Source of the DNA: an uncultured Bacteroidales bacterium
GTDB lineage: Bacteria > Bacteroidota > Bacteroidia > Bacteroidales > VadinHA17
Length of the DNA: 64,000 bases
NCBI GenBank assembly: GCA_963719235.1
Contig: CAVRBS010000014.1
Coordinates: forward strand, 64,688-128,687
Reading direction: 5' to 3'
Shown: piece by piece, positions 10,689 through 42,403 of the stretch
Position numbering within the stretch: position 1 is the stretch's first letter
Layout: each line of letters begins with the position of its first letter
The notes under the pieces: generated by a model
The model's input: the letters and a program-made list of their open reading frames with translations, nothing else
The model's database searches: none
What the model was told of the DNA's origin: nothing
Translations under genes and position numbers: made by a program

Positions 10689-10879
10689 GAACCGGTTATA
10701 TATTTTTCTATCACGCCGCGATTTCTTTAAAAGGAAAGCAAAAGTAACACTTATCATTTACTTTTTTCAATTATCGGACAATTCAGGATGAGATTTATTT
10801 TCATTTCCTTATAATTAATGTGAGCCTTTGTCATTGTCCGGTGGGAAAAATTTCGTTATTTCGGCATCTTAAAATTGGC

Positions 10880-20398: not shown

Positions 20399-20475
20399 TT
20401 TTCTTCTCTTAAACAGAAAAAAGGTGATGCTCTTATTTACTTTGTCCGGGTTAGCGGATGCCCTTATTTTTGTGC

Positions 20476-22851: not shown

Positions 22852-22971
22852 ATCGATCCATTTGTTAAGGGTTTGCATCGGACAGGACCTGTTGCAGAGC
22901 CGTTAAAAGATAGAGGAAGTATTTTTTGCTATCTTTAAAATGATTGAACAGCCAAAAATACAAGTAAAGAA

Positions 22972-24114: not shown

Positions 24115-24222
24115 CCCGGCATTGTAATGTTACAGGCTTATATTATCCCGGAATAAAGAATTAAGATCCCTGGCGCCAACTTATCAAAGCCGGGCAAACA
24201 TTTGCCGGGGTGGTTTGTTTAA

Positions 24223-26033
24223 ATGAAAGACATACAATTTATGCCCGGGCCAGAGTATTTTAAAAGGAACAATCTTGATAAGTCATCATCGCCATACCTT
24301 CTGCAGCATGCAGGTAACCCGATATGGTGGCAGGAATGGAGCAGGGATGCAGTGGAGCAGGCTTTACGGACAATCAGCCTGTGTTCGTTTCCATAGGATA
24401 CGCAACCTGTCACTGGTGCCACGTGATGGCTGCCGAAGCCTTCTCAGACACTGAGACAGCCTCTTACCTGAACGATAATTATGTCTGTATCAAGGTCGAC
24501 AGGGAACAGCGGCCTGACATCGACCAGATCATGATGCATTTCATCCAGGCGCAAAGCGGCAGCGGAGGATGGCCCCTGAACGTCTTCCTGACGCCCGGGC
24601 TAAGACCGATCTATGCACTCACCTATGCACCGACCAGCTCATCCGGTAACAGGATTTCTTTCCTTGATATTGCAAAGAGCGTTCGCCGGTATTTCGAAAC
24701 AAACGGAAAGGGAGTTCCCGTATTTAATCCCTCAGAGGAAGAGCCACCTGTTGCAGCAGAAGAGACAATGGTTGAAGAACTGGCATCCTATTTTGATCAT
24801 GAACACGGCGGCTTCGGCATGGGACAGAAGTTCCCGCCTCATTCGACACTGCTGTTCCTGCTCTACCTCCTGCCGGTAAGGGATGACGCTGAGATCAGAA
24901 CGCTCTGCACATCGACGCTGGATGCCATGATGCTTCGCGGACTGAACGATCACCTCCAGGGAGGGATCTTCCGCTACTGCGTGGACCGTGAATGGACCAT
25001 ACCGCATTTTGAGAAGATGCTCTACGACCAGGCCATGGCGCTATGGTGTTACTCACTGGGCTATAAGGTGACAGGCAGAGATGATTATAAGATCATGGCT
25101 GAAAAGATCGTGAGATGCCTTGACGAGTGCTTTGAAGAGGATGGATTGTACATTTCTGCTTTTAACGCAGATACAGGTCATGAAGAGGGAGCAACATATC
25201 TCTGGAGTTTCCGGGAGATTGAAGATGCGCTTGACCCGGAGGATTTTCGACGGTTCTGCGAAACCTATATTATAAGCGAAGAAGGTAACTTTGAGGGATT
25301 GAACCACCTGATAAGAAGGAACAGTAATCGTTTAAACGATATCGAAGACAAACTGCTCACTATACGGAATTCGAGGCAGCAACCCACCAGGGATGACAAG
25401 ATCGTCTGCGGCATCAATGCGCTTGTCGCTGCCGCAATGATACAGGCAGGCCGGATGCTTGACAGGCCTGAGTTGGAGGTGAAGGCTGCGGAGACCGTTA
25501 AAAGCCTTCTGAACAGATTCTGGGACAGTACAACTCTCGGACACTCTTACTACAACGGCCTGCTTCAGAAACAGAGCTTCCTGTCAGATGCCGGGGCAAT
25601 GCTTACTGCAATAACGATGCTGTTCGAAAATGATGAGACATGGGGCGAGAAGATGACCGCGATGGCTCTTTATGTGGAATCATTCAGGGAGAACGGTAAG
25701 TGGATTGAGTTGCGGGCTGAAGATTTTCAGACGGTTTATGCATCATGGTTCGATCATCCTGTTCCTTCAGGGGTGAGTTTTGCAGAGACAGGACTGACCC
25801 GTGCTGCACTGCTGACAGGGAAGGATTGCAGGCCAGCAGATTACAGGAGGCCGTTCCAGTCAGATTTTTACAATATCAGTGCTTTGATCAGCAACGGCCT
25901 GTTTCACGTTTACACCACCGTTAAACCGATCCCCTGGATGCATATCCCGGTCAATTCGATACAAAAGAGAGGTGAGCCGGAGACGGATTGTTACAACGGG
26001 GTCTGCAGGATTCCGGATTTGATGGACTTGTAG
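24223..26033 (+). CDS. Thioredoxin-domain protein of the DUF255/YyaL family, frameshifted at T-run 24363-24365
   Basis: The ATG 24223 frame gives MKDIQF...SSSPYLLQHAGNPIWWQEWSRDAVEQA. ORF 24324..26033 continues FTDNQPVFVSIGYATCHWCHVMAAEAF...VDREQRPDID. Together these form the canonical DUF255 N-terminus. Confidence 0.8.
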
Positions 26034-26150
26034 CACGGGACATGCTGGTGATCCCGCGGAGCGGGAGAGGCAGACCCGCGAAGAGGGAGAGTATGGAGGA
26101 GGGAGAAGGCAATAGGCAATAGGCACCGACAGTAGTGTTGGCATGCAAGG

Positions 26151-27122
26151 TTATACAGGCACATGAACCGTAATAACTACATTCCCCTTTTTGTGACCTT
26201 GATCGACATACCTGTGGGCCTCGGCAATTTGTTCCAGTGAATAGTGTCTATCTATGACCGGTTCTATCTTTCCCGCCTCGATAAGTTCTTTCAGGAAAAC
26301 GAGATTCTCCTTTCTCTCGGTTGCTACTCCACCAATTACTTTCTTACTGCTTGTTATTGAAGTCCAAAGTCCTTGAACAAATGGTGATAATGTCATGTGG
26401 ACAGCTCTAAGATAGATCCCTCTTTGTTTTAATGATCTTACACAGCCAGAAAACGGGCTTTTACCTGTCGTGTCAAAAATAATATCATAGAACAGGCCAC
26501 TTTTGGTAAAGTCCTCTTTAGTGTAATCAATCACCTTGTCGGCTCCCAATGATTTAACCAGTTCTACGTTCGCAGTACTGCATACGCCGGTGACTTCCGC
26601 CCCAAAGTACTTAGCAAGCTGGATTGCAGCTGTACCTAAACTACCGGATGCACCATAGATAAGCACTTTTTGTCCAATCGTGATATTCCCTTTTCTGAGA
26701 AAATGCAATGCTGTATTTCCCCCGAAAGGAATGACAGATGCTTGTTCATAGGTTAAATTTGCCGGTTTTATTGCAAGAGTCCCCTCTTCAGGCAGACATA
26801 TGTACTCGGCATTAGCACCAAGACTCAATCCTGCCTGTCCAAAAACCTGGTCGCCCGTACTAAACATTTTTACATTTTTGCCCACAGCTTCAATTTCTCC
26901 GGCCAATTCATTTCCGAGAACAGTTATCTTTTTTGGTCTTGTGAGGCCATTGATAAATCTTACAGCAAATGGATCAGCCTTGCGCATCCGACAGTCTCCT
27001 GACGTTACGGTTGTCGCATATATTTTTATAAGTACTTCATTGTCGCTAGGAATAGGTTTTTCAACCTCTTTGAGCTTCAGAACGTCAGGTGATCCGTATT
27101 TTGTAAAGACAGCTGCTTTCAT
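26151..27122 (-). CDS. Medium-chain (zinc-type) dehydrogenase/reductase, quinone oxidoreductase-like
   Basis: 323-aa ORF with [23 protein letters not shown], the nucleotide-binding site [18 protein letters not shown], and the C-terminus HKKGNVVI. Confidence 0.85.
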
Positions 27123-27128
27123 GAGTAA

Positions 27129-27534
27129 TTATTCAAATTCGCCTTCAGGATTACGCCATTTCCATGCATAAAAGACAATTAGTGCAGTACTCGCAATTTC
27201 TATAACTGTGAAAAATACATAATACATAGTTGGCTTTGCAACAAAAAGAGTCACTGGCAGTACCACTGTCATTATTGTGCCTGCGATTATGCTCGCCAGT
27301 CGACTTGCCCGATACTTTAAAATCCGGGACAAGAGGACCATCGTAATCGGAATCATCATGAATATGGCACCTCCCAACAGGAATCCTTCAGTCATTTGAA
27401 TCGATCCGTGTTTAACAGGGTCCATTAATGTTACAACATCGCCGTAGGTATAAGTGAGGATTGCAAATAGCCACAGTGCGGAGAGTTCTCACTTTCATGT
27501 CCGGTAATTGAGTGGTCTTCTTAACGTCATTCAT
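27129..27534 (-). CDS. Small multi-pass membrane protein (DUF6326-like), frameshifted near 27480
   Basis: ATG 27532-27534 gives MNDVKKTTQLPDMKVRTL. The frame of ORF 27129..27425 is open from there and reads SALWLFAILTYTYGDVVTLMDP.... The junction is at a CC run. Confidence 0.5.
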
Positions 27535-27809
27535 ATTTTTTATTTTTAGTTATCAGTATGGGACTTAGCTTTTATTATTCGTCGCAAGGACTAATCCATT
27601 GTATATTAACATTATTAATAAGATAGAGTTCATCATCCAGTGTAATTTACTCTGCGAATGACCAATATTTTTAGTATTTTCCAGAATGCAGGCCAACGTT
27701 CGGCGGAACCGATCCCGACACCAAAAGGGGAATCCCGCTTCAGCGTGAAAGCAAAGCAAGCAAGGAAGGTTACGGATCTAAATGATCTCCGGGATAGCCG
27801 GAAACTGTT

Positions 27810-28535
27810 TCAGGCCAGTCCAGGCAGGCGTTTTTTAAAGAATGCCAGCAAAAGCAAAACAGCCACAACGCCCAAGGCAACAGCTGCAACAATGAAGATA
27901 GTGCGGTAATCAGCCTGGCGCTTTATCATTATTCCTGCAAAAGCCCATACCACCGATAACCCAATGAATGGATTATCAAGCCACCAGAGAGCCATAACAG
28001 TTATCAGGGCACCGACGATGATCATTATGACTGTCCATGTCTCTCCGGAAAGGCCAAAGCCGTTCCAGTTGTATGTAACAAGAAGAGCCGTCACATTGGC
28101 TATGGTGGCAATACAGATCCAACCCATGTAGATGCCGAAAGCTGCCTTGATCAGACCGTAGGGCAAGTCTTTGACAATAATGTTTATCCAGATCAGCGAT
28201 ACAAGCAATCCCAGCATAAGGATCAGTGAGAGTGGAAGCCTTTCATAATGCCATGCAACTATCCAAAGTGCATTAAAGAAACATGACACAGCAAACAGCC
28301 AGCCTATCCGGGAAATGACTGCCTGATTTGATGAAGTGAACTGGGTGACACAAAAAACCAGGAGCAGCAGATAGATCACACCCCAGATCGAGAAGGTAAG
28401 TCCTGCCGGGACAAAGAGGTTAGGGAATGAGTCGGACAGAGCCCCGGTAGTCTTGCCGTTAAGAGGAAGGGCATTGGCCAGATAGTTCATGACTATCATG
28501 ACAGCGAAGAAGAGAATGTTTATGTAGCGCATCAT
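27810..28535 (-). CDS. Multi-pass membrane protein (TspO/MBR-related N-terminal motif)
   Basis: 241-aa hydrophobic ORF with LPLNGKTTGALSDSFPNLFVPAGLTFSIWGVIY, a motif I associate with TspO/MBR-related proteins. The assignment is tentative. Confidence 0.4.
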   Translation of the reverse strand: MMRYINILFFAVMIVMNYLANALPLNGKTTGALSDSFPNLFVPAGLTFSIWGVIYLLLLVFCVTQFTSSNQAVISRIGWLFAVSCFFNALWIVAWHYERLPLSLILMLGLLVSLIWINIIVKDLPYGLIKAAFGIYMGWICIATIANVTALLVTYNWNGFGLSGETWTVIMIIVGALITVMALWWLDNPFIGLSVVWAFAGIMIKRQADYRTIFIVAAVALGVVAVLLLLAFFKKRLPGLA

Positions 28536-28763
28536 ATGTTGTTTATGTTCCGACGATAAATTTATAAAAAGTAAAACGATTCAAAAACAGAAATGAAAAT
28601 ATCAGAAAGTTTTCAGGACCCTGATAAAGTATTTCTAAAAATTTCTAACTTTAAGAAGTTAAACACATTTTGTTTTAACTCCGATGTTAAAGTAACCCTT
28701 GCAAAGCATAGCGGCTTATCACTCAGATCCTATATCAGAAAAACTCAAGAAACATTTTATATA

Positions 28764-31700
28764 ATGAAAAAAATCATTCCACAACCACAATCCGTAAGTA
28801 CCGCAGGTTTCAGGTTTGTTGTCTGTGTACTGCTTCTTCTGGTTAATGGCGTTTCGTTTGCAGATGGTCTGAAATTCACTCCGAAAAGTCAACAGGAGAA
28901 TGAGGCTATTTCAGATCAGGCTCAGAAAGAAATACGCATCACAGGCAAGGTTCTGGACGAAGAAGGGAAACCGCTGCCAGGTGCAAGCATATTGCTTGTT
29001 GGTTCAGTAAAAGGGGTTATGTCAGATGCTGACGGGTCCTATGTTATTACTGTTCCTTCCACTGCGAGTACCCTCGAGTATTCTTATGTGGGTTATGTAA
29101 AACAACAGATCAGGGTCGGAACCAGCACGGTTATTAATGTAACGCTGGTAATGCAGTACAATAGCATTTCAGCGGTGGTTGTCGTCGGATATGCAACAGA
29201 GCAGAAGGCTCTTCTGACCGGTTCTATTGATGTGGTCAACTCTGAGGTGATCAGGGATATCCCTGTTATGAATATTGACAACCTTATGCAGGGTCAGGCA
29301 AGCGGAGTGCAGGTTACGCAAAACTCCGGAACACCGGGAGGGTCAACTTCAGTAAGGATACGAGGAGTGAACTCGATCAGCGGTTCCAATCAGCCTCTTT
29401 ATGTAATCGATGGAATCCCTGTTGTTACAGGTGATTATGGACAGGTCGGATATGAAGGACAGGGAATAAATGCCTTGTCCGACCTCAATCCTAATGATAT
29501 CGAATCGATAAGCATTCTGAAGGATGCGGCAGCCGCATCAATTTACGGAGCGCGTGCATCAAACGGTGTTATTGTCATCACCACAAAAAGAGGCGCCAAT
29601 CAGAAAACACAGGTCAGCCTGAATGCATATTACGGAGTGCAACAGGTGTGGAGGACACTTGATATGCTTGATGCTCTTGGATGGATGGAATACAGGAATG
29701 ACCTTGCAGGCACGCCTGTTTTTTCGCAGGAGGAAATGGACAATATAACCATTGACACAGACTGGCAGGAAGAGATTTTCCGCACTGCACCCAATGCAAA
29801 TTATGAGCTGACAGCCAATGGCGGAAACGAGAAGACAAAGTTCTTTATGAGCGGCGACTACTTCACACAGGATGGTATCCTGATAGGAACAGATTATCAA
29901 AGGCTGAACGGAAGATTAAATCTGGACCATAATCTCTCCGATAAAATCACTGTCGGAGCAAGCGTTGGACTGACCTATGCCAAAACCAACCGTGTGGAAG
30001 GAGACCAGACGCTCCACGGCCCGCTGCCCAACGGTATCTCCACTCCGGCTATTTATCCCGTATACAATGAAGATGGCTCTTATAACCAGGATGGTCCTTA
30101 TTCAAATGCGGTATCCATTGCCAATGAGGCAATCAATGAGAACTTTTCATTCCGGGCGCTGGCCAACACTTACCTAACCTGGCAGATCATACCCCGCCTG
30201 AGCTTTACAACCAAATGGGGAGCAGACTTTTTAAACTTCCGCGAGCATGCTTTCGAGTACAATACAGTTCAGGGACAAAAATACAACGGACTGGGATTTG
30301 AGACATACACCAATGTGCTCAATATAGTCTCAAACAACCTGCTCACCTATGACTTCTCAGCCAATGAGAATAATTTCGGATTTTTACTGGGTTACAGCTT
30401 TGAAAAATACCAGGACAGGTCTTCGTTTATCAGGGCCCAGGACTATGCCGATGAAAGCCTTGAATACATCAATTCTGCCACAACAATTGCATCGGCCAGT
30501 TCAGATGCAAACAACTCAGGGTTAAGCTCATTCTTCGGAAGGATAAATTATGATTATGATACAAAATACATAGTCTCTCTGTCGGGCCGGTTTGATTCAT
30601 CCTCAAAATTCGGAGAAAACAACCGGACAGGTTTTTTCCCGGCAGCATCAGTCGCATGGAGGCTGGGCGAGGAAGATTTCATGGATAACCTTTCATCAGT
30701 ATCCGAGTTGAAAATAAGAGCCAGTTACGGCCTCACGGGTAATGATGACATCCCACCCTTCCTTTATGCCGAACTGTACGGTGTCACCTCTTACAACAGT
30801 GCATCGGCGATCTATCCGAGCAGCATCCCGAACCCGGATCTGAAATGGGAAAGCACGGCCCATCTGGATATCGGTCTGGATTTAGGATTTCTGGAGAACC
30901 GGATATTCCTCACCATCGATTACTATAATAAACAGACCAAGGATCTGCTTCTTGCAAGGCCATTGCCGGGAAGTTCCGGGTTTTCTTCCATAACAGAAAA
31001 TATCGGACAGGTCGAAAACAAGGGGCTGGAGCTGAATTTAACAACCAACAACCTGGTTGGCAAATTCAAATGGAATACGATGGCAAACCTGTCCTTCAAC
31101 AGAAATAAGGTGCTTAAGCTATACAACGGACAACCCATCGATGATATCGGGCGCGGAGGCAACCGTGTGATGGAGGGTCAGCCGATCGGCATATTCTACA
31201 GTTATGAATGGCTGGGTATCGACCCCTCAACAGGAGACTGCGTCTATTCCGATTTAAAGAAAGATGATCAGATAACAACCGAGGACCGCACCATAGTCGG
31301 AAATCCTCATGCCGATTTTCACGGGTGGCATAACCAATAACCTCAGTTACATCGGTTTTGACCTGAGTGTTTTCCTGCAGTTTTCATACGGGAATGATAT
31401 ATTCAACGGTTCTCGTCTGTTTCTCGAATCGCTACAGGGCGGTGATAACCAGGTTGCTGACATTGAACGCAGATGGCAGGAGCCCGGCGATATAACAGAT
31501 ATCCCCAGGGCAACCTCTGATGCTGTTGCTGCAGCGTCAAACAAGCGCGTTTCATCGAGGTTCATCGAGGACGGATCATACCTGAGGATTAAAAACCTGA
31601 CTCTTGGATACACTTTCAGTGATAATCTGATACGCAAACTGCACCTCTCAAACCTGAGGATCTACCTCACCTGTCAGAACCTGTTCACATTTACCAACTA

Positions 31701-31818
31701 TTCAGGCCTTGATCCTGAGGTGAATTACCTGGGCGATGACAATACGGTTATCGGGACGGATTTCTTTACATATCCGGAGGCACGTAGTTACAATTTCGGC
31801 GTTAATTTAAAATTCTAA
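28764..31818 (+). CDS. SusC/RagA-family TonB-linked outer-membrane transporter, frameshifted at T-run 31316-31319
   Basis: ATG 28764 (MKKIIPQPQ...) leads into a CarboxypepD_reg domain (ITGKVLDEEGKPLPGASILLVG) and a plug (SVRIRGVNSISGSNQPLYVIDGIPV). ORF 31309..31818 continues FTGGITNNLSYIGFDLSVFLQFSYGNDIFN...NFGVNLKF, the SusC C-terminus. Confidence 0.9.
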
Positions 31819-31821
31819 GCC

Positions 31822-33153
31822 ATGAAGAAAGCATTATATATAATTGGCATACTTGCCCTCCTGACCGGATGTGAGGTTTTAAATCTTGAATCTGAAGATG
31901 CCATTCCTGCAGATGAGGCATTTAAGGATAAGACCGGTATTGAAAAAGGGATATTGGGCAGTTATTCGTCGCTTCAGTACCTTAGTTATTATGGCAGGAA
32001 TTGCCTTATTTATTCTGACCTTGCCGCTGATGACCTGTCACACCCCACAGATGCCACCAACTCCGACTGTGCTGAGGTTGACAACAACGCCATGCTTGCA
32101 GAAAACTCTGCCGTGAGCGGACTCTGGGCTTCTGCTTACGACGGAATAAACGTTGCCAACAATGTGATCGTCAAGGTACCCGGAATGACTGACATGACAG
32201 AAACTGAAAAAAATGAAGCACTCGGTGAGCTTTATTTTCTCCGCGGCCTGGGCCATTTTAATCTCCTGAACTATTTTGGTGCTATCCCGATCAAAATCGA
32301 ACCCACGGTTGGGGTCAGCAATCTTGACGCAGGACGTGATCCGGTGAACGAGGTGTATGCTCAGATCAAATCTGATCTTACTCTTGCTTCCAAATACCTC
32401 GATGCTTCCGCATCAACAAAGACCAGGGCATCGAAATATGCCGCCATTGCCTTGCTTGCAAGAGTATGTCTCTATTCCGGTGATTATGAAATGGCCTGGC
32501 AGAAAGCTGACAGTGTGATAAAATACGGCGGTTATACTATGCCTGTTAATTACGCAGATGTATTTGCATCTGACGGATCGGCAGAAACAATATTCGAGAT
32601 TGATTTTAACGAGCTGGACCGGAACAGAATTGCCGAGTATAATTTCCCGAAAACGCTGAACGGAAGAAGGGAAGTCCAACCTGATCCTGGTATTATCAGC
32701 GCCTATGAGGCAGACGACGAGCGGAAAGCAGTCTCGATAGCTTATGACGGTGCGCTGGCATATGCCAACAAATACAATGACCTGAGCAAAGGAGCCGATA
32801 ATGTCATTATTCTTCGCCTGGCAGAGATGTACCTGATCAGGGCAGAGGCTGAAGCCAACCTGACCGGAGGAAACATCTCCTCAGTAAAAGCGGATATAAA
32901 CACAATAAGGGCCAGGGCAGATCTTGGTCCGACTTCCGCGAATACAGCAGGTGAATTGCTGCTGGCCATTGAGCAGGAAAGAAGGGTGGAGTTTGCCTTT
33001 GAGGGGCATCGATGGTTCGACCTGGTAAGAACAGGAAGGGCAATAGACGTTCTGCCTAATGTAACCAAATCCAATCAGACCCTATTCCCCATCCCCGCCG
33101 ATGAGATACTGACAAATAAAAGTCCTGAAATGATACAAAATCCTGGATATTAA
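31822..33153 (+). CDS. SusD/RagB-family outer-membrane lipoprotein
   Basis: It starts 3 nt after SusC. It has the lipobox LLTGC and the SusD profile: YFLRGLGHFNLLNYFG, RLAEMYLIRAEA, ERRVEFAFEGHRWFDLVR, FPIP. Confidence 0.9.
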   Translation: MKKALYIIGILALLTGCEVLNLESEDAIPADEAFKDKTGIEKGILGSYSSLQYLSYYGRNCLIYSDLAADDLSHPTDATNSDCAEVDNNAMLAENSAVSGLWASAYDGINVANNVIVKVPGMTDMTETEKNEALGELYFLRGLGHFNLLNYFGAIPIKIEPTVGVSNLDAGRDPVNEVYAQIKSDLTLASKYLDASASTKTRASKYAAIALLARVCLYSGDYEMAWQKADSVIKYGGYTMPVNYADVFASDGSAETIFEIDFNELDRNRIAEYNFPKTLNGRREVQPDPGIISAYEADDERKAVSIAYDGALAYANKYNDLSKGADNVIILRLAEMYLIRAEAEANLTGGNISSVKADINTIRARADLGPTSANTAGELLLAIEQERRVEFAFEGHRWFDLVRTGRAIDVLPNVTKSNQTLFPIPADEILTNKSPEMIQNPGY

Positions 33154-33183
33154 TTTTATAATAATTAACTAAACTACTACACA

Positions 33184-34047
33184 ATGAAAGCTACAAAACT
33201 TCTTTTACTGCTTGCTGCTGTTGCATTAACCTTTATGGTTTCATGCAAGGATGATGAAGAACCTGAGGTAATTCCATCGCTTTACTTCATGGATGCAAGC
33301 GATGAGATCATGGGAAAAATAGTACTCGACGGTACCAATACCTTAACAACTGTAAAAGACCTGGCAGAAATGTCAGGACCCGGCATTGCCTATGACGATG
33401 AAACCAAAAAGATCTATTTCAGTGATTATTATGATGCAGACACGCCAGATGGCAAAATATGGAGAATGAAACTGGACGGTACCGGACTTGAATCTATCGT
33501 CACCGGTATTCTTGATCCCTATGGTATTGCTATAGATCATGACAATAATAAGGTCTACTGGGCTGATGATGCCGAACATATTTCGAGGGCAAACCTCGAT
33601 GGCTCAAGCCTTGAGACTGGAATAGTGACCATCACTGACGCATACATGAGGGCAGTGGCCATTGACGAGAAGAACGACAAAATGTACTTTTATGAGGACT
33701 GGTATGAGAATTTGTATGTCGCCAACCTTGACGGTTCAAATCCTACGATTCTGATCTCAGGTGTATACGGATATTCAATATTCATAGACACAGAGAACAG
33801 TAAGATTTACTTTGACGATCAGAATACTCCGGCACTGAGAATGGCCAATCTGGACGGTTCCGGCATTGTGAATATTGCTGACGTTGATGACCGCGTCTCT
33901 GGCATTGACATTGATTATGACAAAAATAAATTGTACTGGTCCGACAGGGGTCTGGGAGAGATTTACGAAGCTAACCTTAACGGTACAGGTAAGGTTACGA
34001 TTGCTACAGGGCTCTCAAGCCCGAGGGGTATAACCCTGGTCAAATAA
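33184..34047 (+). CDS. Lipoprotein with YWTD (LDL-receptor class B-like) beta-propeller
   Basis: It has the lipobox FMVSC and five to six blades of the pattern KIYFSD / KVYWAD / KMYFYE / KIYFDD / KLYWSD, each followed by (M/A)NLDGS. Confidence 0.7.
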   Translation: MKATKLLLLLAAVALTFMVSCKDDEEPEVIPSLYFMDASDEIMGKIVLDGTNTLTTVKDLAEMSGPGIAYDDETKKIYFSDYYDADTPDGKIWRMKLDGTGLESIVTGILDPYGIAIDHDNNKVYWADDAEHISRANLDGSSLETGIVTITDAYMRAVAIDEKNDKMYFYEDWYENLYVANLDGSNPTILISGVYGYSIFIDTENSKIYFDDQNTPALRMANLDGSGIVNIADVDDRVSGIDIDYDKNKLYWSDRGLGEIYEANLNGTGKVTIATGLSSPRGITLVK

Positions 34048-34062
34048 AAAGACAGGCAGCTT

Positions 34063-34091
34063 CTTGCGGACCGGCGTTGCCGGTCCGCAAG
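34063..34091 (+). terminator. Perfect 13-bp stem / 3-nt loop hairpin inside the operon (attenuator or RNA-stability element; no T-tract)
   Basis: cttgcggaccggc (34063-34075), gtt, gccggtccgcaag (34079-34091) are exact reverse complements. It lies 16 nt after the stop of 33184..34047. Confidence 0.4.
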
Positions 34092-34171
34092 GCTTGCCTG
34101 ACTGTAATACTGACTAAAGTGTCGACCGGTCAGACTGCAACAGGCAGCCTGATCTAATAAAAACAGAAAAT

Positions 34172-35318
34172 ATGAAAATGAAGCTTGTTAGTCGGATTGT
34201 TATCGTGCTGTCACTTCCTTTAATGTTCAACAGCTGCAAGGACGAGGGATTTCCCGTGCCCCCCGCGAGTACAGTCCCCCGCTTTTCCTACACGGTTGAC
34301 AACAACGGATTTGCTCCGGCCACAGTTGAGTTTACCAATGAGTTCTATCGTTCCTGAGGAAGCAGGGAACCCATATTATTTCTGGGATTTCGGTGACGGG
34401 ACAAAGTCCACCGAGGTGAGCCCGGAACATCTGTACTCAGCACCGGGCGTCTTTGCAGCCTCCCTGGTAATCAAGACTGATGTTTCGCTGGAGATAAAGG
34501 AGCTTGCAAAAGACATTGTCATACTTAATTCAGAAGCAACGGGGATACCTGTTTTCTTTACAGACGGAAGCCAGGTTTATACCGGATTTCTGAATGACGA
34601 TAAACCGGTATTTTCTGCACTGCCCATCGGTCCTTTCCAGGATTCGTATGACCTGGCTGTCGATACGGTAAACTCAAAACTGTACATCAGTGATTACGAT
34701 GCAAGCGCAATTTACCGCTGCGATCTTGACGGTAGCAACCTGTCCGAATTCAGGACCGGCCTGCCAGGACCGGACGGCCTTGCAATCGATTATGCCGGAA
34801 ACAGACTTTACTGGGATACGGATGATGGTATCCAGAGGGCAGATATTTCGAATTCTGATGTTAACCAGAAAGAGGATTTCGTTATTGGACAGGGCGACGG
34901 TGACCCTGAAGGGGTGTCGATCGACCCTGTGCACAGCAAGCTTTACTGGATCAATTATAATGGTGGTCTATGGACAAAGAATCTCGACGGGACAGGTGAA
35001 ATTGAAATTATACCTCTTGTTGAAGGAGGGAGTACCCTGATCATTGGTAACCGGGTTTATTTTGACCAGTGGGTGGCTTCGGGAGATATCCATCTTAAAT
35101 CAGCGAATCTCGATGGAACAGCTATCAGCACACTTACTACAGGGATCAGCCGTGTGGTATTTGGTATCGGATACGAATCGGAATATAATAAGATCTATTG
35201 GGGCGACCGCACTCCGGGCAAGATCATGAGAGGCAACACTGACGGATCAGGCATCGAGACATGGTACGAAAAATCCGGATCAAGCCCGCGCGGAATAGAG
35301 TTTGGCAAGAAGAAATAA
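34172..35318 (+). CDS. Lipoprotein with PKD domain and YWTD beta-propeller, frameshifted at 34340-34346
   Basis: ORF 34172..34357 (lipobox MFNSC; ...APATVEFTNE) and ORF 34296..35318 (SIVPEEAGNPYYFWDFGDGTKS...HLYSAPGVF, then KLYISD / RLYWDT / KLYWIN / KIYWGD blades) join into one PKD-propeller protein. Confidence 0.7.
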
Positions 35319-35330
35319 ATAAGGAACTGT

Positions 35331-36179
35331 ATGTTAAAACCAATAGCTGTACGCATGATGCTGGTGATGGCATTATGCGCTGTATGTCTTTCGTGCCAGA
35401 GCAATACCGTAAAAGAAGGAAAACTGTTCATACTCGGAGGAGGAAACCTCTCCTCCTCCATCATTGAAAAAATAATAGCAGAATCAGGACTTGACAAAGG
35501 GGGATACGGAGTTATCCTCCCGATGTCAAGTGAAGAGCCCGATACGGCTGTTTTTTATACGACGGCCTATTTCACCAGTCAGGGGCTCGACAATGTCTAT
35601 GGCCTGCATTTTGTCAAGGGGAAGCCCTATTCACAAGCCCGGATTGATTCTATCCGTAATGCAAGCATGGTCTTTATATCGGGAGGCGATCAGAGCCGCT
35701 TCATGGATGCAATTGAGGGCACTCCCATCAAGGCTGCCATTCACGAGGCTTATGACAGGGGAAATGTGGTATGCGGGACCAGCGCAGGGGCAGCCCTGAT
35801 GAGCAAAACAATGATCACCGGGAATGAGCTGAAACATCCCGAGGCTGAAACTGTGTTCACTACCATGGAAGCAGAAAATGTGGAAACCATTGAAGGGCTC
35901 GGGATGCTGGAAAAGGTGATCATAGATCAGCATTTCATTATCCGGAAACGTCTGAACAGATCCGTCTGTGCTTGCATCGAGCACCCTGAATACATGATCG
36001 TGGGCATAGATGAGCCGGCGGGTATTTTTGTGGAAGGTAACACAGCTACCGTTCTTGATGCCCAGGTGGTGGTGCTTCAAAATCCGTCAGACCCAAAAAC
36101 CGAAAACGGTTTGCTGGGAGCCCGGAAAATACAACTGGATGTTTACCTGCCGGGAGAGAGTTTCCAGATAAAAAAATGA
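35331..36179 (+). CDS. cphE: Cyanophycinase (peptidase S51), lipoprotein/exported form
   Basis: It has the lipobox CLSC and LFILGGGN, FISGGDQSRF, VVCGTSAGAALMS (catalytic Ser) and IIDQHFIIRKRLNR, the cyanophycinase signature set. Confidence 0.85.
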   Translation: MLKPIAVRMMLVMALCAVCLSCQSNTVKEGKLFILGGGNLSSSIIEKIIAESGLDKGGYGVILPMSSEEPDTAVFYTTAYFTSQGLDNVYGLHFVKGKPYSQARIDSIRNASMVFISGGDQSRFMDAIEGTPIKAAIHEAYDRGNVVCGTSAGAALMSKTMITGNELKHPEAETVFTTMEAENVETIEGLGMLEKVIIDQHFIIRKRLNRSVCACIEHPEYMIVGIDEPAGIFVEGNTATVLDAQVVVLQNPSDPKTENGLLGARKIQLDVYLPGESFQIKK

Positions 36180-36190
36180 GGGATTGGTAA

Positions 36191-37796
36191 ATGACTAAAA
36201 AGCGACAGATCCCCCATACTTTTGTCCTTGTCTTCTCTATAATTGTATTAGCTGCCGCTGCCAGCTGGTTTGTCGATGGAGGTGAATATTCCAGGACAAT
36301 TAAAGTAATGCCTGACGGCACTACCAGGAATGTTATTGACCCCGGCTCATTTCAAAACGTCGAAAACAATCCTCAGACCTGGCAGATCTTTTCTGCCCTG
36401 TTCGAGGGGTTTGTATCCAAATCTGATATAATTGTGTTCATCCTGCTTATCGGGGGTGCATTCTGGATCATGAATGAAAGCAAGGCAATAGACGTTTCAA
36501 TTATTGCTTTTCTGGGTGTTGCCCGGCGACTGGAGAGATTTAAGTTCATAAAATGGATAGGCATAGACAATATCATCATTGCCCTCTTTATGATCATCTT
36601 CAGCATTTTCGGATCAGTGTTCGGGATGTCGGAAGAGACCATCGCATTTATAATCATCTTCGTACCGCTTTCGATAAGCATGGGATATGATTCCATCGTG
36701 GGAATATGCATGTGCTTTTTTGCTGCCGGGCTGGGGTTTGCAGGCGCAACCCTGAATCCCTTTACCATTGGCATTGCGCAGGGATTATCTGACCTGCCCC
36801 TCTTTTCCGGCCTGGAATACCGCATATTTGTGCTGGTTTGTGCTCACTGTAACCGGCATTGCCTATGTATTATGGTATGCGCGGAAGATCAAACGGGATC
36901 CGAAGAAATCGGTAATGTATGAGCTTGACGATGTATGGCGTAAAATGGTTCTTCAAAGGGAAACAAAGACGGAATACAGGACACCTGTCTCTGCCTGGGT
37001 TGTTTACGCTGTCCTCTTTGCCGTAATGGTTGTCTATTCATTTTTGTATCCTGTTTCGACTATAAATTTCGGACAGGCAGAAATGACAATACCGGTCATT
37101 CCGGTTATTGCCGGGTTGTTCTTAATATCAGGATTTGTATCGCTCCGTAAATCAGTACATTTCTTTATCCTTGATATTTTCATTTTCACCATCCTGTTTC
37201 TCCTGGTGGGGGTTATGGGCTATCACTGGTATGTGATGGAAATAGCGACCCTGTTTTTCGTAATGGGGCTTTCAAGCGGGGCGGCGATGGGCTATTCTCC
37301 GAACAAAATCACGGAGTTGTTCATTGCAGGAGTAAAGGATATTCTTTCTGCTGCCCTCGTGGTGGGCCTGGCCGGAGGAATAATAGTCGTCCTGCAGAAC
37401 GGCAAGGTCATTGATGCAATGCTGCACGGCATTGCAGGGTCAATGAGTGATGTCGGTAAATTTGGATCCCTCAGTATCATGTACGGGATCCAGACTCTGA
37501 TCAACCTGGTAATGACATCCGGATCAGCAAAAGCTGCACTGACAATGCCTATCATGGCACCCTTCTCAGACCTGATAGACGTTTCACGGCAGGCAACAGT
37601 AGTGGCATACCAGCTGGGCGACGGTATTACAAACATGATCACTCCCACCTCTGCTGTGCTGGTCGGGGTGCTGGGCGTTGCGAAAATCCCTTACGAAAAA
37701 TGGTTCAGGTGGGCATGGCCCCTGATACTGTTTCTAATGATCCTTGGCCTTCTTCTGCTCCTCCCGACAGCAACAATGGATCTTAACGGATTCTAA
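36191..37796 (+). CDS. YfcC-family (DcuC-like) membrane permease, frameshifted at about 36826-36836
   Basis: ORF 36191..36922 (MTKKRQIPHTFVLVFSIIVLAAAASWFV...) and ORF 36768..37796 (...WFVLTVTGIAYVLWYARKIKRDPKKS...) are halves of one roughly 530-aa permease. Confidence 0.8.
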
Positions 37797-37823
37797 CTGT
37801 TCTTTCATTACAAAAAACTTATT

Positions 37824-38993
37824 ATGAATATGTTGCTCATTAAAAATATTGAAGTGTACAGCCCCGGATTTCTGGGCAAAAAAGATATCCTGATTGCTGG
37901 CGAAAGAATAATCGCCGTTGAAGATGAGATCGATGTCAGGTCTCTGAAAAACATCGGGATCATCATCATTGACGGTAAGGGTAAAAGAGTGATACCGGGG
38001 CTTATCGATGCCCATGTACATATTGCAGGTGCCGGAGGCGAGGGCGGACCGGCAACCCGGACGCCGGAGATGCAGCTGTCACAGATGCTTGACGGAGGTA
38101 TTACAACTGTTGCAGGCTGCCTGGGGACAGACGGGTTCACAAGATCGCTGGAAGCAGTTTTAATGAAGGTCAAGTCATTGAAAGCCCAGGGGGTATCAGC
38201 TTATATGTATACCGGATCATACCAGGTTCCAACCCCGACCCTGCTGGGTGATGTGGGAAGGGATATCGCCCTGATAGAAGAGGTGATAGGCGTCGGAGAA
38301 ATAGCCATCTCCGATCACAGAAGCTCCTGTCCGACCACCAGTGAACTTATTCGTCTCGTTGAACATGCCAGGGTGGGCGGCATGCTCGGAGGAAAAGCAG
38401 GAATTGCCAATATCCATATGGGTGACGCCAGGGATCCGTTCCGGCCAATATATGATGCCGTTGCAAACAGTGAACTGAAACTGACACAGTTTTATCCAAC
38501 CCACTGTAACAGGAACCCCTATATTTTTGAAGACGCAAAAGTGTACGGAAAGAAAGGATATGTGGACCTTACAGCCAGCTCATACCCATATGATCCTGAC
38601 AATGAGATAAAACCCTCCAAAGCCATTGTTGAACTGATGGCCGGGGGAGTACCGCTGGAACATATCACCATGACATCCGACGGAAACGGATCGCTGCCTA
38701 ACTTCGACAAGGACGGCAAGCTGATAAGCATGGATATGGGATTGCCGAAATCGATCTTCTCAGTGATGATTGATGCGGTAATACAGGAGAACCTGCCACT
38801 GGAAAAAGCGGTGAAGGTAGTGACCTCAAATGTGGCTTCCATACTTAAGCTCAAAGATAAGGGAAGCATAGAGCCCGGGAAAGATGCTGATATCGTTATT
38901 CTAGATAAGGATTATACAATCTCAGATCTTATTGCCCGCGGACAGCTGATGACCCACAATTACCAACGAATGAAAAAAGGGACTTACGAATAG
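37824..38993 (+). CDS. iadA: Isoaspartyl (beta-aspartyl) dipeptidase
   Basis: It is colinear with E. coli IadA as I recall it: PGLIDAHVHIAGAGGEGGPATRTPE, GTDGFTRS, ISDHRSS, HMGD, THCNRN, TSDGNGSLP, GKDADIVILD, ARGQLM, KKGTYE. Confidence 0.85.
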   Translation: MNMLLIKNIEVYSPGFLGKKDILIAGERIIAVEDEIDVRSLKNIGIIIIDGKGKRVIPGLIDAHVHIAGAGGEGGPATRTPEMQLSQMLDGGITTVAGCLGTDGFTRSLEAVLMKVKSLKAQGVSAYMYTGSYQVPTPTLLGDVGRDIALIEEVIGVGEIAISDHRSSCPTTSELIRLVEHARVGGMLGGKAGIANIHMGDARDPFRPIYDAVANSELKLTQFYPTHCNRNPYIFEDAKVYGKKGYVDLTASSYPYDPDNEIKPSKAIVELMAGGVPLEHITMTSDGNGSLPNFDKDGKLISMDMGLPKSIFSVMIDAVIQENLPLEKAVKVVTSNVASILKLKDKGSIEPGKDADIVILDKDYTISDLIARGQLMTHNYQRMKKGTYE

Positions 38994-39020
38994 TCATGGA
39001 TCTGATTCTATAAGAATAAA

Positions 39021-40517
39021 ATGAAAAGGCTTTTCTTCTTCTTTCTGCTTGGCTGTTTTTCCGCCGTATCAGCCCAGGATTTTCAAACACCGTTACAGAA
39101 AAACGGTTTTACCAGGCCTTCTTCCTATGAAGAGCTGAGCGATTTTGTGAAACAGATGGACGCAAGTTCCTCCATGCTCACAGTTGAGACAGCAGGGCAA
39201 TCGGTGCGGGGAAGGAACATATATGCAATGAAGTTCTCCTCCTCGGTTTTCGGAGAAGATAAGTCAAAGATCAGAGTGCTTGTTTTTGCACAGCAACACG
39301 GGAACGAACAGTCAGGAAAGGATGGAGCCTTACTGCTTACGCTGGAGCTGTTAAAACCGGAGAACAGATACCTTCTTGACCGTATTGACCTTCTGCTGGT
39401 GCCCCTGGTGAATCCTGACGGATCAGAAGAAAACAAACGACGGAACGGAAATGATGCTGATCTTAACCGTAATCATTTGATTCTTACCGAGCCTGAAACC
39501 ATTACCCTGCATCGTCTCTTCGATCAGTATCTTTTCGATGTTACCATGGATGTACATGAATACTTCCCATACGGTGAGACATGGAAAAAATACGGTTACC
39601 GCAATAAATCAGACGAATTACTTGGAACTGCATCAAACATCAACGTTTCAGAAAAACTAAGAGAATTATCAAATGAAAGTTTTCTTCCCTTTATGAAAGA
39701 ATTCTTTGATGAGAGGAATGTCTCCAGTTTTATTTACTGCCCCGGAGGACCACCGGAGACAGAGTATATAAGGCACAGCACATTTGATATCAATGATGGA
39801 AGACAGAGCTTCGCAATCCTGAATACATTTTCATTTATTCAGGAAGGGCTGAACGGTCAGGATGCTTTTACCGATAATATAAAGCACCGGGCTGAAGGTC
39901 AGATGACAGGGATGAAGGGATTGTTAGAGTATGCCTATAAAAATTGCCAGACAATTAAAAAAACTGTCGCCGGTGAAAGGAAGAAGTTGATTCGCGGCAC
40001 GGCAGGAAAAACCGTCTCGATACAGAATGAGCATGTGAGAAACGGCCGGACACTGGAGCTGCCCTTGTATTCCTATTACTCAAATACTGATACAGTAGTG
40101 ACAGTGATTGATTACAGGCCTGTCGTCAGGTCACTTTATGATGTTGAAAAACCTTGCGGTTACCTGATCCCAAAAGAGCTGAACGATGTTACCGGCTGGG
40201 CTGAAAGACATGCTCTCGTGACAGAAAGCTTTACCGGCGGTGACCGGTATAGAATAGAACAGTATGAGATTTCCGCAATTGATTCTATCGACTTCGAGGG
40301 AGATATAATTGTTAATCCGGAGGTGACTTCGCATGACCAGGATGTCAGAATCAATTTCAGCGATTATGTCTATGTTCCCACTTCCCAGTTAAAAGGGAAT
40401 ATGATTGTCATTGCCCTTGAGCCAAAGTCGATGCTGGGTCTGGTGACATATCCGGGATTTGCTCATTTGCTAAGGTCAGGAGAAGAATTTCCGATACTCC
40501 GGGTGAGCAAGAAGTAG
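39021..40517 (+). CDS. M14-family zinc carboxypeptidase, secreted
   Basis: It has a signal peptide, the zinc ligand region FAQQHGNEQSG, and NPDGSEE...DLNRNH. Confidence 0.75.
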   Translation: MKRLFFFFLLGCFSAVSAQDFQTPLQKNGFTRPSSYEELSDFVKQMDASSSMLTVETAGQSVRGRNIYAMKFSSSVFGEDKSKIRVLVFAQQHGNEQSGKDGALLLTLELLKPENRYLLDRIDLLLVPLVNPDGSEENKRRNGNDADLNRNHLILTEPETITLHRLFDQYLFDVTMDVHEYFPYGETWKKYGYRNKSDELLGTASNINVSEKLRELSNESFLPFMKEFFDERNVSSFIYCPGGPPETEYIRHSTFDINDGRQSFAILNTFSFIQEGLNGQDAFTDNIKHRAEGQMTGMKGLLEYAYKNCQTIKKTVAGERKKLIRGTAGKTVSIQNEHVRNGRTLELPLYSYYSNTDTVVTVIDYRPVVRSLYDVEKPCGYLIPKELNDVTGWAERHALVTESFTGGDRYRIEQYEISAIDSIDFEGDIIVNPEVTSHDQDVRINFSDYVYVPTSQLKGNMIVIALEPKSMLGLVTYPGFAHLLRSGEEFPILRVSKK

Positions 40518-40562
40518 ATTGAATATTATCATCGTTATTATTTAAAGCTAAACATACTCAAA

Positions 40563-41672
40563 ATGCGTATCACACAGGTAGAACTAAGGCACATTAAGAT
40601 GGTACTGGTAAGCCCATTTGTTACATCAATGGGAACAGAATATGATGAGGAGCACATTATTGTGCGAGTTGATGGCGGAGATATAACTGGCTGGGGTGAA
40701 AGCGTTGCTGAAGGAACCCCTTTCTATTCGTATGAAACGGTGCAAACCGCCTGGCATATTCTCCGCGATTTTTTAATCCCCGCAATCCTCGGAAAAGATC
40801 TGTCAGGAATTGATGAAGCAATCGCCTCATATTCAATTGTGAGAGGTCACATGATGGCAAAAGCCGGACTGGAGGCAGCCCTGTGGGATGCATTTGCCAG
40901 GTCGAAGAACATGTCGCTTTCAAAGATGCTGGGCGGGGTGAGAGACAAGGTGGATGTAGGTGTGAGCATAGGTATACAGCCATCAGAGAAAGATCTGATC
41001 CATAAGGTGGAAGGATACCTTGCAGAAGGATATAAGAGGATCAAGATCAAAATTGCACCAGGAAATGACATTCAGTATGTCAGGGCGCTTCGCAAAGAGT
41101 TTCCCCGGCTGCTCCTTCAGGTGGATGCAAACTCAGCTTATACCCTCAATGACATTGCCCTGTTTAAAAAACTGGATGAATATAACCTTTCGCTGATCGA
41201 GCAGCCTCTTGGATACGAAGATATTTTTGACCATTCAAAACTTCAGCGCGAAATAAAAACTCCAATTTGCCTTGATGAAAGCATTCATTCCCTCGATGAC
41301 ACACGTGCAGCAATTGAATTAGAAAGCTGCAGGATAATAAACATCAAACCCGGGCGGGTAGGTGGATTTACTGAATCAAAACTAATTCACGATTACTGTG
41401 CTTCGATGAAAATACCTGTGTGGCATGGAGGCATGCTGGAGTCGGGTATCGGACGGGCAGGGAATGTTGCCCTGGCCTCCCTTCCTAATTTTACGCTTCC
41501 CGGGGATATTTCTGCCAGCAAACGTTACTATAAGGAAGATATCGTAATACCTGAGTTCGTGGTGAACAAGGACGGAACAATGGATGTTCCGGTGAAACCT
41601 GGCATTGGCGTTGAAGTAGACATGAAAATGCTGGCAAAAGTGACGGTGAGAAAAGAAGTATTCAAATTATAA
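40563..41672 (+). CDS. Enolase-superfamily enzyme (o-succinylbenzoate synthase / N-acylamino-acid racemase / dipeptide epimerase subgroup)
   Basis: It has the KxK motif (KRIKIKI), the metal ligands QVDAN, LIEQP and CLDES, and the second catalytic Lys in NIKPGRVGG. Confidence 0.8.
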   Translation: MRITQVELRHIKMVLVSPFVTSMGTEYDEEHIIVRVDGGDITGWGESVAEGTPFYSYETVQTAWHILRDFLIPAILGKDLSGIDEAIASYSIVRGHMMAKAGLEAALWDAFARSKNMSLSKMLGGVRDKVDVGVSIGIQPSEKDLIHKVEGYLAEGYKRIKIKIAPGNDIQYVRALRKEFPRLLLQVDANSAYTLNDIALFKKLDEYNLSLIEQPLGYEDIFDHSKLQREIKTPICLDESIHSLDDTRAAIELESCRIINIKPGRVGGFTESKLIHDYCASMKIPVWHGGMLESGIGRAGNVALASLPNFTLPGDISASKRYYKEDIVIPEFVVNKDGTMDVPVKPGIGVEVDMKMLAKVTVRKEVFKL

Positions 41673-41744
41673 GTTACCGGTTATTTCCGTTCCGTCTACT
41701 TGTTTAATTCGCTCAGTTCCAGACCGTAGTCGTATTGCAGGTCT

Positions 41745-42173
41745 TCATGCAGGACGAGATACTTTCTTAATGATGGTGTCTATCTGTCTGTTGTATAGGT
41801 TCATAAGCGCGGTGTTCCTTTTTATGGACGGGGAGAGTGTTTTCAGCTTTGTACAAAAATAAAGAAGCAACTCTACCTCTGTCTGTTTCTTCTGCGAATA
41901 CCTGATGTACTTCCTGGTGTTCTTTAAGATCTTCCTGACACTCTTTCTGATATAGTAATAGGTCGTCTTGTTGATCTTTTCAAATTCCTCATCTATCTCC
42001 TTCTTTACACCAGCTATATATGACTGCTCGTCGGATGATTCGAACAGCAGATAAGTCAGCAACTCCTTGTTCTCCTTTTTAAATCTCGACAGGCGGAGAC
42101 AGAGATCGCGCAGTTCCTTTGGCGTGCGATACGTTAATTCCTGGCTTAGTTCTCTGACCGTGACTGTCTTCAT
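41745..42173 (-). CDS. Hypothetical protein (conserved-looking, basic, helical)
   Basis: ORF 41745..42278 with preferred ATG 42171-42173 (MKTVTVRELSQEL...). A shifted frame at the 3' end reads YLVLHEDLQYDYGLELSELNK to TAG 41696-41698, so the true C-terminus may be displaced. Confidence 0.4.
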   Translation of the reverse strand: MKTVTVRELSQELTYRTPKELRDLCLRLSRFKKENKELLTYLLFESSDEQSYIAGVKKEIDEEFEKINKTTYYYIRKSVRKILKNTRKYIRYSQKKQTEVELLLYFCTKLKTLSPSIKRNTALMNLYNRQIDTIIKKVSRPA

Positions 42174-42403
42174 AGATAAGACGGTTAAAATGGGTAGCAT
42201 TGTTACACGCAAAGGTAAAATATAATCCGCTCCAGAGTGGGAGCATCGAAAAGGGACAGACTGAACTGAACTGAGCAATTAAGAATTAATACTTAATAAT
42301 TTAGAATTCGGCAGTCTTTGAGTTTGTCGAATAATTCGAATCTGAATGACTACATAGCAGCACGACATCAGACTCTTGAAACCTGCAGACGAGCGAAATC
42401 CGG

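Follow-up and report, generated by a model that had tools for sequence, protein, structure and literature searches.

A candidate cyanophycin scavenging locus of the SusC/SusD type in an uncultured Bacteroidales bacterium

Gene content of the locus

A nine-gene locus on the plus strand (28764-41672) was analysed in the window, a 64-kb stretch of DNA from an uncultured Bacteroidales genome, as a candidate for the utilisation of cyanophycin, which is described as a nitrogen-rich storage polymer of cyanobacteria and many other bacteria with breakdown products that are valuable public goods (the passages quoted from PMC10206079). In order, the genes encode a SusC-type transporter, a SusD-type lipoprotein, two propeller lipoproteins (propeller 1 and propeller 2), an S51 peptidase (S51a), a YfcC/DcuC-family permease, an isoaspartyl dipeptidase (IadA), an M14 carboxypeptidase and an enolase-superfamily enzyme of the N-succinylamino-acid racemase/o-succinylbenzoate synthase (NSAR/OSBS) type. 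Profile searches against Pfam and NCBIfam confirmed all nine identities, which had been proposed in a first-pass annotation of the DNA, and the measured gaps of 3, 30, 124, 12, 11, 27, 27 and 45 nucleotides (nt), in gene order, agree with the same-strand spacing of 3-124 nt given there, a range which assumes that propeller 2 starts at the ATG at 34172. As had also been noted, the operon holds no glycoside hydrolase, lyase or esterase: no glycoside hydrolase (GH), polysaccharide lyase (PL) or carbohydrate esterase (CE) domain was found by the profile searches in the nine genes or their immediate neighbours, and the carbohydrate-active enzymes (CAZymes) that accompany susCD in a functional glycan polysaccharide utilisation locus (PUL) are absent here.

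S51a, a compact cyanophycinase of 282 amino acids (aa) with a lipoprotein signal, is encoded by the fifth gene (35331..36179, +), matches PF03575 (E = 2.9e-19) and scores 134.6 bits against the cyanophycinase equivalog model TIGR02069, which has a cutoff of 126.6, while it reaches 34 bits against the dipeptidase E (PepE) model, with a cutoff of 156. The motifs GGDQ, GTSAGA and DQHF-R-R-R, which had been picked out before, and a fourth, GIDE, are invariant in 24 homologues with 50-92% identity, as are the single residues Q121, S151, D199, Q200, H201, R205, R207, R210 and E228. In addition, the best matches of S51a in the Protein Data Bank (PDB) are the cyanophycinases 7UQV and 3EN0, to both of which the motifs align. 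Among these residues we take a Ser-His-Glu triad to be catalytic and a Gln, an Asp-Gln pair and three Arg to line the substrate pocket, roles presumed from the structure literature on CphB. With the S51 domain, a score above the equivalog cutoff and the triad and pocket residues all present, S51a is predicted to hydrolyse cyanophycin to beta-Asp-Arg.

The lipobox Cys of S51a is followed by QSNTVKEGK, which is devoid of the acidic surface-export signal; its Bacteroidales homologues are similarly basic or neutral after the lipobox, and its orthologues in Flavobacteriia and Cytophagia carry ordinary AxA-type signals for signal peptidase I. Because of this missing export signal and the signal-peptidase-I signals of the orthologues, S51a is probably periplasmic rather than extracellular, and the earlier proposal that the enzyme at 35331-36179 cleaves the polymer outside the cell is not upheld.

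The first two genes encode the putative outer-membrane import pair. SusC (28764..31818, +), a SusC/RagA-type TonB-dependent outer-membrane transporter, matches TIGR04056 with 740 bits, over positions 2-823 and then 822-981 in two open reading frames (ORFs) that split near 31315, and carries the SusC/RagA signature TIGR04057 (61.8 bits). The SusD/RagB-family surface lipoprotein of 443 aa (31822..33153, +; PF14322 and PF07980) begins 3 nt further on, so that both signatures of a SusC/SusD pair stand in adjacent genes. Acidic residues after the lipid-bearing Cys serve as a surface-export signal in Bacteroidota, as known from Capnocytophaga and Bacteroides. In SusD, EVLNLESED comes after the lipobox LTG-C, and the mature form carries a net charge of about -25. 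Propeller 1 (33184..34047, +; 287 aa), a six-bladed YWTD lipoprotein with PF00058 (LDL-receptor class B) repeats, begins with VS-C-KDDEE, which fits the acidic lipoprotein export signal, and has a pI of 4.1; propeller 2 (34172..35318, +), which combines a PKD domain (PF18911, PF00801) with a YWTD propeller and is split near 34343, begins with NS-C-KDEG. All three mature lipoproteins are strongly acidic (net charge -25 to -28, pI 4.1-4.5), and by the acidic motifs after the lipid Cys all three are predicted to be surface-exposed.

The six-bladed YWTD fold of propeller 1, indicated by PF00058, was also recovered by structure comparison: its AlphaFold model (pLDDT 93.1) has as top Foldseek matches the propellers of LRP6, LRP4 and LDLR (E about 1e-17, TM score 0.77-0.80). 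Since these closest structures are ligand-binding propellers, the modelled fold argues for binding rather than catalysis, and propeller 1 is a candidate surface cyanophycin-binding protein. The propellers were also considered as lactonase-like or Vgb-lyase-like enzymes; however, these matches were sub-threshold and the fold is that of ligand-binding YWTD propellers.

Downstream of S51a, the YfcC/DcuC-family inner-membrane permease (36191..37796, +) is recognised by PF03606 and NF008611 on two ORFs which split near 36832, and it is the candidate importer of beta-Asp-Arg; a permease of this family also adjoins S51a in nine other loci (L007, L013, L018, L021, L024, L025, L032, L049 and L057). The next gene (37824..38993, +) encodes IadA, a predicted cytoplasmic isoaspartyl (beta-aspartyl) dipeptidase, which scores 475 bits against TIGR01975 (cutoff 331) over positions 2-389 of 389 and matches isoaspartyl dipeptidases in the PDB with E values of 1e-96 to 1e-88. 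Its colinearity with the Escherichia coli enzyme, already pointed out in the first-pass annotation, is seen in the alignment with 1ONW (residues 4-389 against 10-388, E = 1.8e-89); a full-length match above the equivalog cutoff is thus combined with colinearity with a solved IadA.

The last two genes encode a signal-peptide-bearing zinc carboxypeptidase of family M14 (39021..40517, +; PF00246), putatively periplasmic, and a predicted cytoplasmic enzyme of the enolase superfamily (MR_MLE; 40563..41672, +). The M14 protein has weak carboxypeptidase matches in the PDB, and its similarity to MpaA reaches only E = 3e-4. The second enzyme had been described as an enolase-superfamily racemase/epimerase, and the superfamily stands; its best PDB match, 1SJA, is an N-acylamino acid racemase (E = 1.7e-102, against 1e-37 for L-Ala-D/L-Glu epimerase), it scores 369.6 bits against TIGR01928 (cutoff 200.65), and the catalytic motifs KxK, D, E, D and K are seen in its translation, so that by sequence it belongs to the NSAR/OSBS subfamily and not to the dipeptide epimerases. 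A murein-peptide reading of the two genes, as a dipeptide epimerase (YcjG) with MpaA, was rejected for the enolase-type gene on its 1SJA and TIGR01928 matches. Both genes accompany the rest of the locus only in the closest relatives (L001, L003, L087 and L088), and they may be a clade-specific add-on which processes N-acyl-arginine-like or epimerised products. Chemically, beta-Asp-Arg is N-succinyl-Arg with one additional amino group. Moreover, the CphZ cyanophycin dipeptide hydrolases are placed in the succinylglutamate desuccinylase/aspartoacylase family (as quoted from PMC10206079). Because of this family and of the likeness between the two compounds, a role of the NSAR-type enzyme and of M14 on cyanophycin-derived products is conceivable, although by analogy and as speculation.

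The longest spacer of the operon, between the two propeller genes (34048..34171, +), is conserved and structured. Its 124 nt fold with a minimum free energy of -57.1 kcal/mol (z = -6.95), and it includes a perfect 13-bp, GC-rich hairpin at 34063-34091 that has no U-tract. Column identity in the spacer is 91% among the window, L001 and L087, which exceeds the 83% DNA identity that L087 shows to the window across the whole locus, and some of the changes preserve pairing. No Rfam match was obtained for the spacer or anywhere in the window, and a REP-like repeat was dismissed, as the hairpin occurs once in the window. The spacer is probably an intra-operon mRNA stabiliser or attenuator, as predicted from its fold. 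A scan for sigma-70 promoters and terminators gave signal no better than shuffled sequences, and no Bacteroidetes -33/-7 promoter motif was found upstream of susC.

A second S51 peptidase

A further S51 peptidase in the window, S51b (20476-21789, -), which the first-pass annotation had overlooked as a candidate outer enzyme, was found by tblastn with an S51 protein that bears a Por_Secre_tail domain and lies divergent from susC in L003, a Bacteroidales metagenome-assembled genome (MAG) with 60% S51 identity. S51b is a secreted, cyanophycinase-like protein of 437 aa, with a signal peptide read from the sequence (MKIITLAIWLILSGVICAKAQS) and a C-terminal Por_Secre_tail domain (TIGR04183, 51.2 bits against a cutoff of 23, residues 364-437); an N-terminal signal peptide and a C-terminal sorting domain are the hallmarks of cargo of the type IX secretion system (T9SS). 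It keeps GGDQ, GTSAG, D-T-H-F, the Ser, His and Glu of the triad and two of the three pocket Arg. By its score and its incomplete pocket it falls short of a cyanophycinase and is classed here as cyanophycinase-like; nevertheless, with its secretion signals, it is a candidate for the likelier extracellular or surface enzyme of the system.

Over its full length, S51b shares 79% identity with the gene which lies divergent from, and immediately upstream of, susC in L087 and L088, and it shares 35% identity with its equivalent in L003. The region between S51b and susC in the window (22027-28535) encodes a 274-aa protein, a saccharopine-dehydrogenase-like protein, a DUF255 thioredoxin, a zinc alcohol dehydrogenase and a TspO-like membrane protein; these apparently unrelated genes do not separate S51b from susC in L087 and L088, and a saccharopine-dehydrogenase-like gene is also found upstream of susC in L001. 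Just downstream of S51b, a gene (19382-20479, -) whose 365-aa product has a signal peptide and surface repeats of the LA_2272 type is probably co-transcribed with it, because its start overlaps the S51b stop by 4 nt.

Enzymes of the S51b type recur together with S51a in three forms: two are T9SS proteins, one of about 435 aa and a longer one of about 670 aa, and the third is a lipoprotein of about 365 aa which is placed between susD and S51a. The Ser and the His are retained in all three, as are two or three of the pocket Arg and, in most cases, the Glu. Six loci (L053, L060, L062, L068, L077 and L078, at about 6.9-8.9 kb in each) have the lipoprotein S51b, with no T9SS domain, between a distant SusCD (28-31% identity) and S51a, another way to arrive at the layout with two enzymes.

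Conservation and comparison with known systems

The adjacency of SusCD and S51, whose absence from all relatives would have counted chiefly against the first-pass interpretation, is conserved in relatives of three classes. The block SusC-SusD-propeller-propeller-S51a is found in Bacteroidia, Flavobacteriia and Cytophagia with SusC identities of 47-71%, its carriers being Bacteroidales MAGs (including L003), Cryomorpha ignava (L004), Winogradskyella forsetii (L005), Ohtaekwangia (L006) and two metagenome contigs (L032 and L036), and it is partial in L007, L010, L011 and L015. Among the closest relatives are L001, from an uncultured Bacteroidales MAG and with 90% identity to the window over 28745-42177, and L087, with 83% DNA identity across the whole locus. 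S51a is the next gene after propeller 2 at a distance of 12 nt in the window, and of 5-79 nt in Flavobacteriia and Cytophagia loci without IadA and YfcC. SusC and SusD lie upstream on the same strand in 15 of the 34 loci with at least 6.5 kb of sequence upstream of S51, and many loci, whether or not they hold SusCD, have IadA, YfcC or both next to S51a; two soda-lake contigs (L019 and L025) have the order IadA-SusC-SusD-x-S51-YfcC, where x is an intervening gene. No CAZyme stands beside the SusCD pair in the loci of L003, Cryomorpha, Winogradskyella, Ohtaekwangia and L087/L088. A second S51 also recurs beside S51a and SusCD, as the T9SS form or as the lipoprotein between susD and S51a, a layout which by analogy parallels the pairing of a surface enzyme with a periplasmic one.

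In two loci that are without IadA, an M20 peptidase directly adjoins S51a (L005, 11042-12361; L006, 10849-12186). The isoaspartyl dipeptidase of Bacteroidota is stated to be still undiscovered in the quoted part of Sharon et al. (2023; PMC10206079), and the M20 peptidase of these two loci is a candidate for the beta-Asp-Arg dipeptidase sought there. As well, the Winogradskyella forsetii locus (L005, 1656-6142) holds a FecR anti-sigma gene and a SusC with an STN domain, which implies trans-envelope control through an extracytoplasmic function (ECF) sigma factor; the window lacks an equivalent regulator.

Ben Hania and colleagues reportedly described, in the abstract of their 2017 paper, a cyanophycin transport complex homologous to polysaccharide utilisation loci. 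The strain concerned, Salinivirga cyanobacteriivorans L21-Spi-D4, is a cyanobacteria-scavenging member of the Bacteroidetes, and according to the passages of PMC10206079 and PMC6243061 that cite Ben Hania et al. (2017) it carries a "cyanophycin utilization locus" and two S51 enzymes, one of them with a Por (T9SS) secretion domain. By that cited description, in which cyanophycinase, iadA and a transporter are clustered, the window locus is alike, with S51a, IadA, YfcC and SusCD in one operon and two S51 enzymes of which one is a T9SS protein. It is unlike it in that M14, NSAR/OSBS and the intergenic hairpin may be clade-specific and the T9SS-type S51b lies 7 kb from susC. Judged by its genes, the window locus belongs to an already described, genome-predicted type of cyanophycin locus, and the first-pass statement that no SusCD-type cyanophycin locus had been described does not survive the Salinivirga report (as cited in PMC10206079). 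A full-text literature search returned no other paper linking cyanophycin or cyanophycinase to SusC/SusD loci, and a protein search that started from a soda-lake homologue listed no Salinivirga entry. What may go beyond the published description is the wide spread over Bacteroidota, the two propellers, the pairing of S51a with S51b and the NSAR/M14 add-on.

The scavenging clusters of genomes without cphA1 (Sharon et al. 2023; PMC10206079), in which cyanophycinase and iadA are joined by a transporter for amino acids or peptides, correspond to the S51a-YfcC-IadA part of the window locus and of many metagenome loci, among them those with S51 but no SusCD. Unlike these clusters, for which the quoted part of the paper mentions amino-acid transporters only, the window adds SusCD, the propellers and a second S51. 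As in the Sus PULs of Bacteroides, susC and susD stand together with genes for surface lipoproteins, putative outer and periplasmic depolymerases, a permease of the inner membrane and a hydrolase for the last step in the cytoplasm, each step having its analogue; the enzymes of the window, however, are serine and metallo peptidases, with no GH, lyase or esterase, and no hybrid two-component system (HTCS), SusR or ECF gene is adjacent.

Another SusCD-family pair, RagAB, reportedly imports ribosomal oligopeptides made by gingipains, whereas the enzymes of the window point to a branched, non-ribosomal poly-amino acid. RagAB of Porphyromonas gingivalis (Madej et al. 2020; PDB 6SLI) is nevertheless like the pair proposed here in serving a peptide substrate, and RagA matches the window SusC with 326 bits, the latter being closer to glycan-type SusC homologues (489 bits). 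Compared with the extracellular CphE of Pseudomonas anguilliseptica and the intracellular CphB of Synechocystis (PDB 3EN0, 7UQW and 7UQV), S51a shares the fold, the Ser-His-Glu triad, GGDQ and the DQHF-R-R-R pocket, but it is distant by sequence (91 and 60 bits), lipid-anchored with a probable periplasmic location, and part of a SusCD operon; its paralogue S51b is much more divergent.

Proposed pathway and alternative readings

Taking gene identities and synteny together, we consider it likely that the locus is a PUL-like cyanophycin scavenging system, for which we infer the substrate, every compartment and every step as follows. T9SS-secreted S51b would attack cyanophycin released from lysed producer cells, outside the cell, and the polymer or its fragments would be captured by the three acidic surface lipoproteins, SusD and the two YWTD propellers. 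Oligomers would then cross the SusC barrel, energised by TonB, and be cut by periplasm-tethered S51a to beta-Asp-Arg dipeptides, which the YfcC/DcuC-family permease would take into the cytoplasm, where IadA would split them to Asp and Arg. For a cyanophycinase to make sense in the periplasm, SusC would have to pass molecules larger than a dipeptide. Of the first-pass interpretation, SusCD-based cyanophycin utilisation is largely retained, and the topology given to S51a and the novelty of the locus are not; S51b had been missed there.

Several points weigh against this proposal. The known cyanophycinases are described as exo-acting and dipeptide-producing (in the passages quoted from PMC10206079), and because of this its weakest link is how an insoluble polymer would yield oligomers that can be imported. 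The same passages describe IadA enzymes as promiscuous for beta-aspartyl dipeptides. S51a passes the cyanophycinase model narrowly, and S51b reaches only 43.2 bits against the same cutoff of 126.6, with Q200 and R205 both replaced by T and a 9-residue insertion; moreover, S51b lies about 7 kb upstream of susC in the window with unrelated genes between. The compartment assignments come from the reading of motifs rather than from a dedicated predictor. No regulator was found by profile searches in the nine genes or their neighbours, just as the first-pass annotation had it. Finally, three genes are formally disrupted in the window sequence.

A bolder version of the scheme appears improbable to us at present. 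In it, uptake would be "selfish" and two-tiered, with SusCD importing oligomeric cyanophycin, S51b acting outside and S51a in the periplasm, the paired acidic propellers would be surface proteins of a new class devoted to cyanophycin binding, and in the clade of the window M14 and NSAR would be a previously unknown catabolic branch on beta-Asp-Arg.

Alternatively, the locus could serve the scavenging of peptides in general or of isoaspartyl peptides in the manner of RagAB, whereby mixed oligopeptides from decaying biomass would enter through SusCD, S51, M14 and IadA would trim those containing Asp, isoAsp (damaged) or D-residues, and cyanophycin would be at most one of the substrates. Such a role would suit the promiscuity of IadA, which is described even for cyanophycin clusters (PMC10206079, as quoted), the presence of an M14 peptidase and an NSAR-type racemase, which are not known cyanophycin enzymes, the inclusion in family S51 of dipeptidase E, to which S51a has a weak match, and the occurrence of RagA among the PDB relatives of the window SusC. 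However, S51a has the full set of pocket Arg and passes the equivalog cutoff, whereas its PepE score of 34 bits is far from the 156 required; the core that recurs across classes consists of SusCD, propellers and S51 only, M14 and NSAR being limited to the closest relatives; and RagA is no closer to the window SusC than glycan SusC homologues are. We regard general peptide scavenging as unlikely.

The disrupted genes raise the question of decay. SusC, propeller 2 and YfcC, whose three frameshifts the first-pass annotation did not report, are each split into two overlapping ORFs by single-base indels which alignment with L001 places at about 31315, 34343 and 36832, respectively, and a four-way comparison showed each to be one extra base found only in the window. 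When one base is removed per site, ORFs of 1017, 379 and 534 aa are restored (propeller 2 having 379 aa from 34178 and 381 aa from the ATG at 34172), which equal the lengths in L087 and L088, two relatives with none of the nine genes disrupted. Intact SusC has 1030 aa in L001 and 1017 aa in L087; intact propeller 2 has 407 aa in L001, as a mechanical ORF with a TTG start, and 379-381 aa in L087 and L088; and intact YfcC has 534 aa in L001, L003 and L087. Between the window and L087, dN/dS is 0.04-0.14 for every gene, with 0.07 before and 0.09 after the frameshift in SusC, 0.05 on both sides in YfcC and 0.10 downstream of it in propeller 2, and the segments after the frameshifts contain no in-frame stops. 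Purifying selection acts on all genes, including the parts downstream of the frameshifts.

L001 has single-base frameshifts of its own, in M14 (about 14383) and NSAR/OSBS (about 15592), at sites different from those in the window, which suggests that both assemblies carry indel errors, about one per 4-6 kb in the region of the locus. Since the relatives are intact and dN/dS is low throughout, the three frameshifts are probably assembly errors or extremely recent events. That they are real and the locus a decaying pseudogene cluster, non-functional in its host, would agree with the interruption of three genes in the sequence as given and with inserted bases that do not lie in long homopolymers; we hold this to be quite unlikely, given that the insertions are single-base and confined to the window, that the different frameshifts of the 90%-identical L001 make a pattern typical of error-prone assemblies, that low dN/dS and open frames continue past the shifts, and that L087 and L088 have all nine genes intact.

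Least probable is that two unrelated units merely abut, a glycan module of SusCD and propellers and a peptidase/transporter operon, for although S51a-IadA-YfcC clusters without SusCD exist (L013, L014, L020, L021 and L033) and the two propeller genes are separated by a strong conserved hairpin within the operon, S51a follows propeller 2 closely even where IadA and YfcC are missing, the SusCD pair stands without a CAZyme in every compared locus, and the hairpin stands upstream of propeller 2 and not between the supposed units.

If the SusCD capture and import route is true, it would let Bacteroidota privatise the nitrogen of cyanophycin. Winogradskyella forsetii and Cryomorpha ignava are cultured carriers of the module, and the idea that came from one genome in 2017 is thus directly testable. 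Worth characterising are the propeller pair, the division of labour between S51a and S51b, and the M20 peptidases which stand beside S51a where IadA is absent.

Of the remaining window, no cyanophycin synthetase was detected among the larger ORFs profiled, not every ORF having been searched. Beyond S51b lie genes for a GH16 glycoside hydrolase (17932-18846, -), the nearest CAZyme and the sole one noticed in the vicinity, which lies outside the operon, and for a beta-lactamase-fold protein (16362-17564, -). A TonB-receptor-like protein adjoining a DUF4249 protein is encoded at 9453-14382, and a YcaO cyclodehydratase (3416-4696, -) and a penicillin-amidase family protein (56769-59228, -) are encoded elsewhere in the window.

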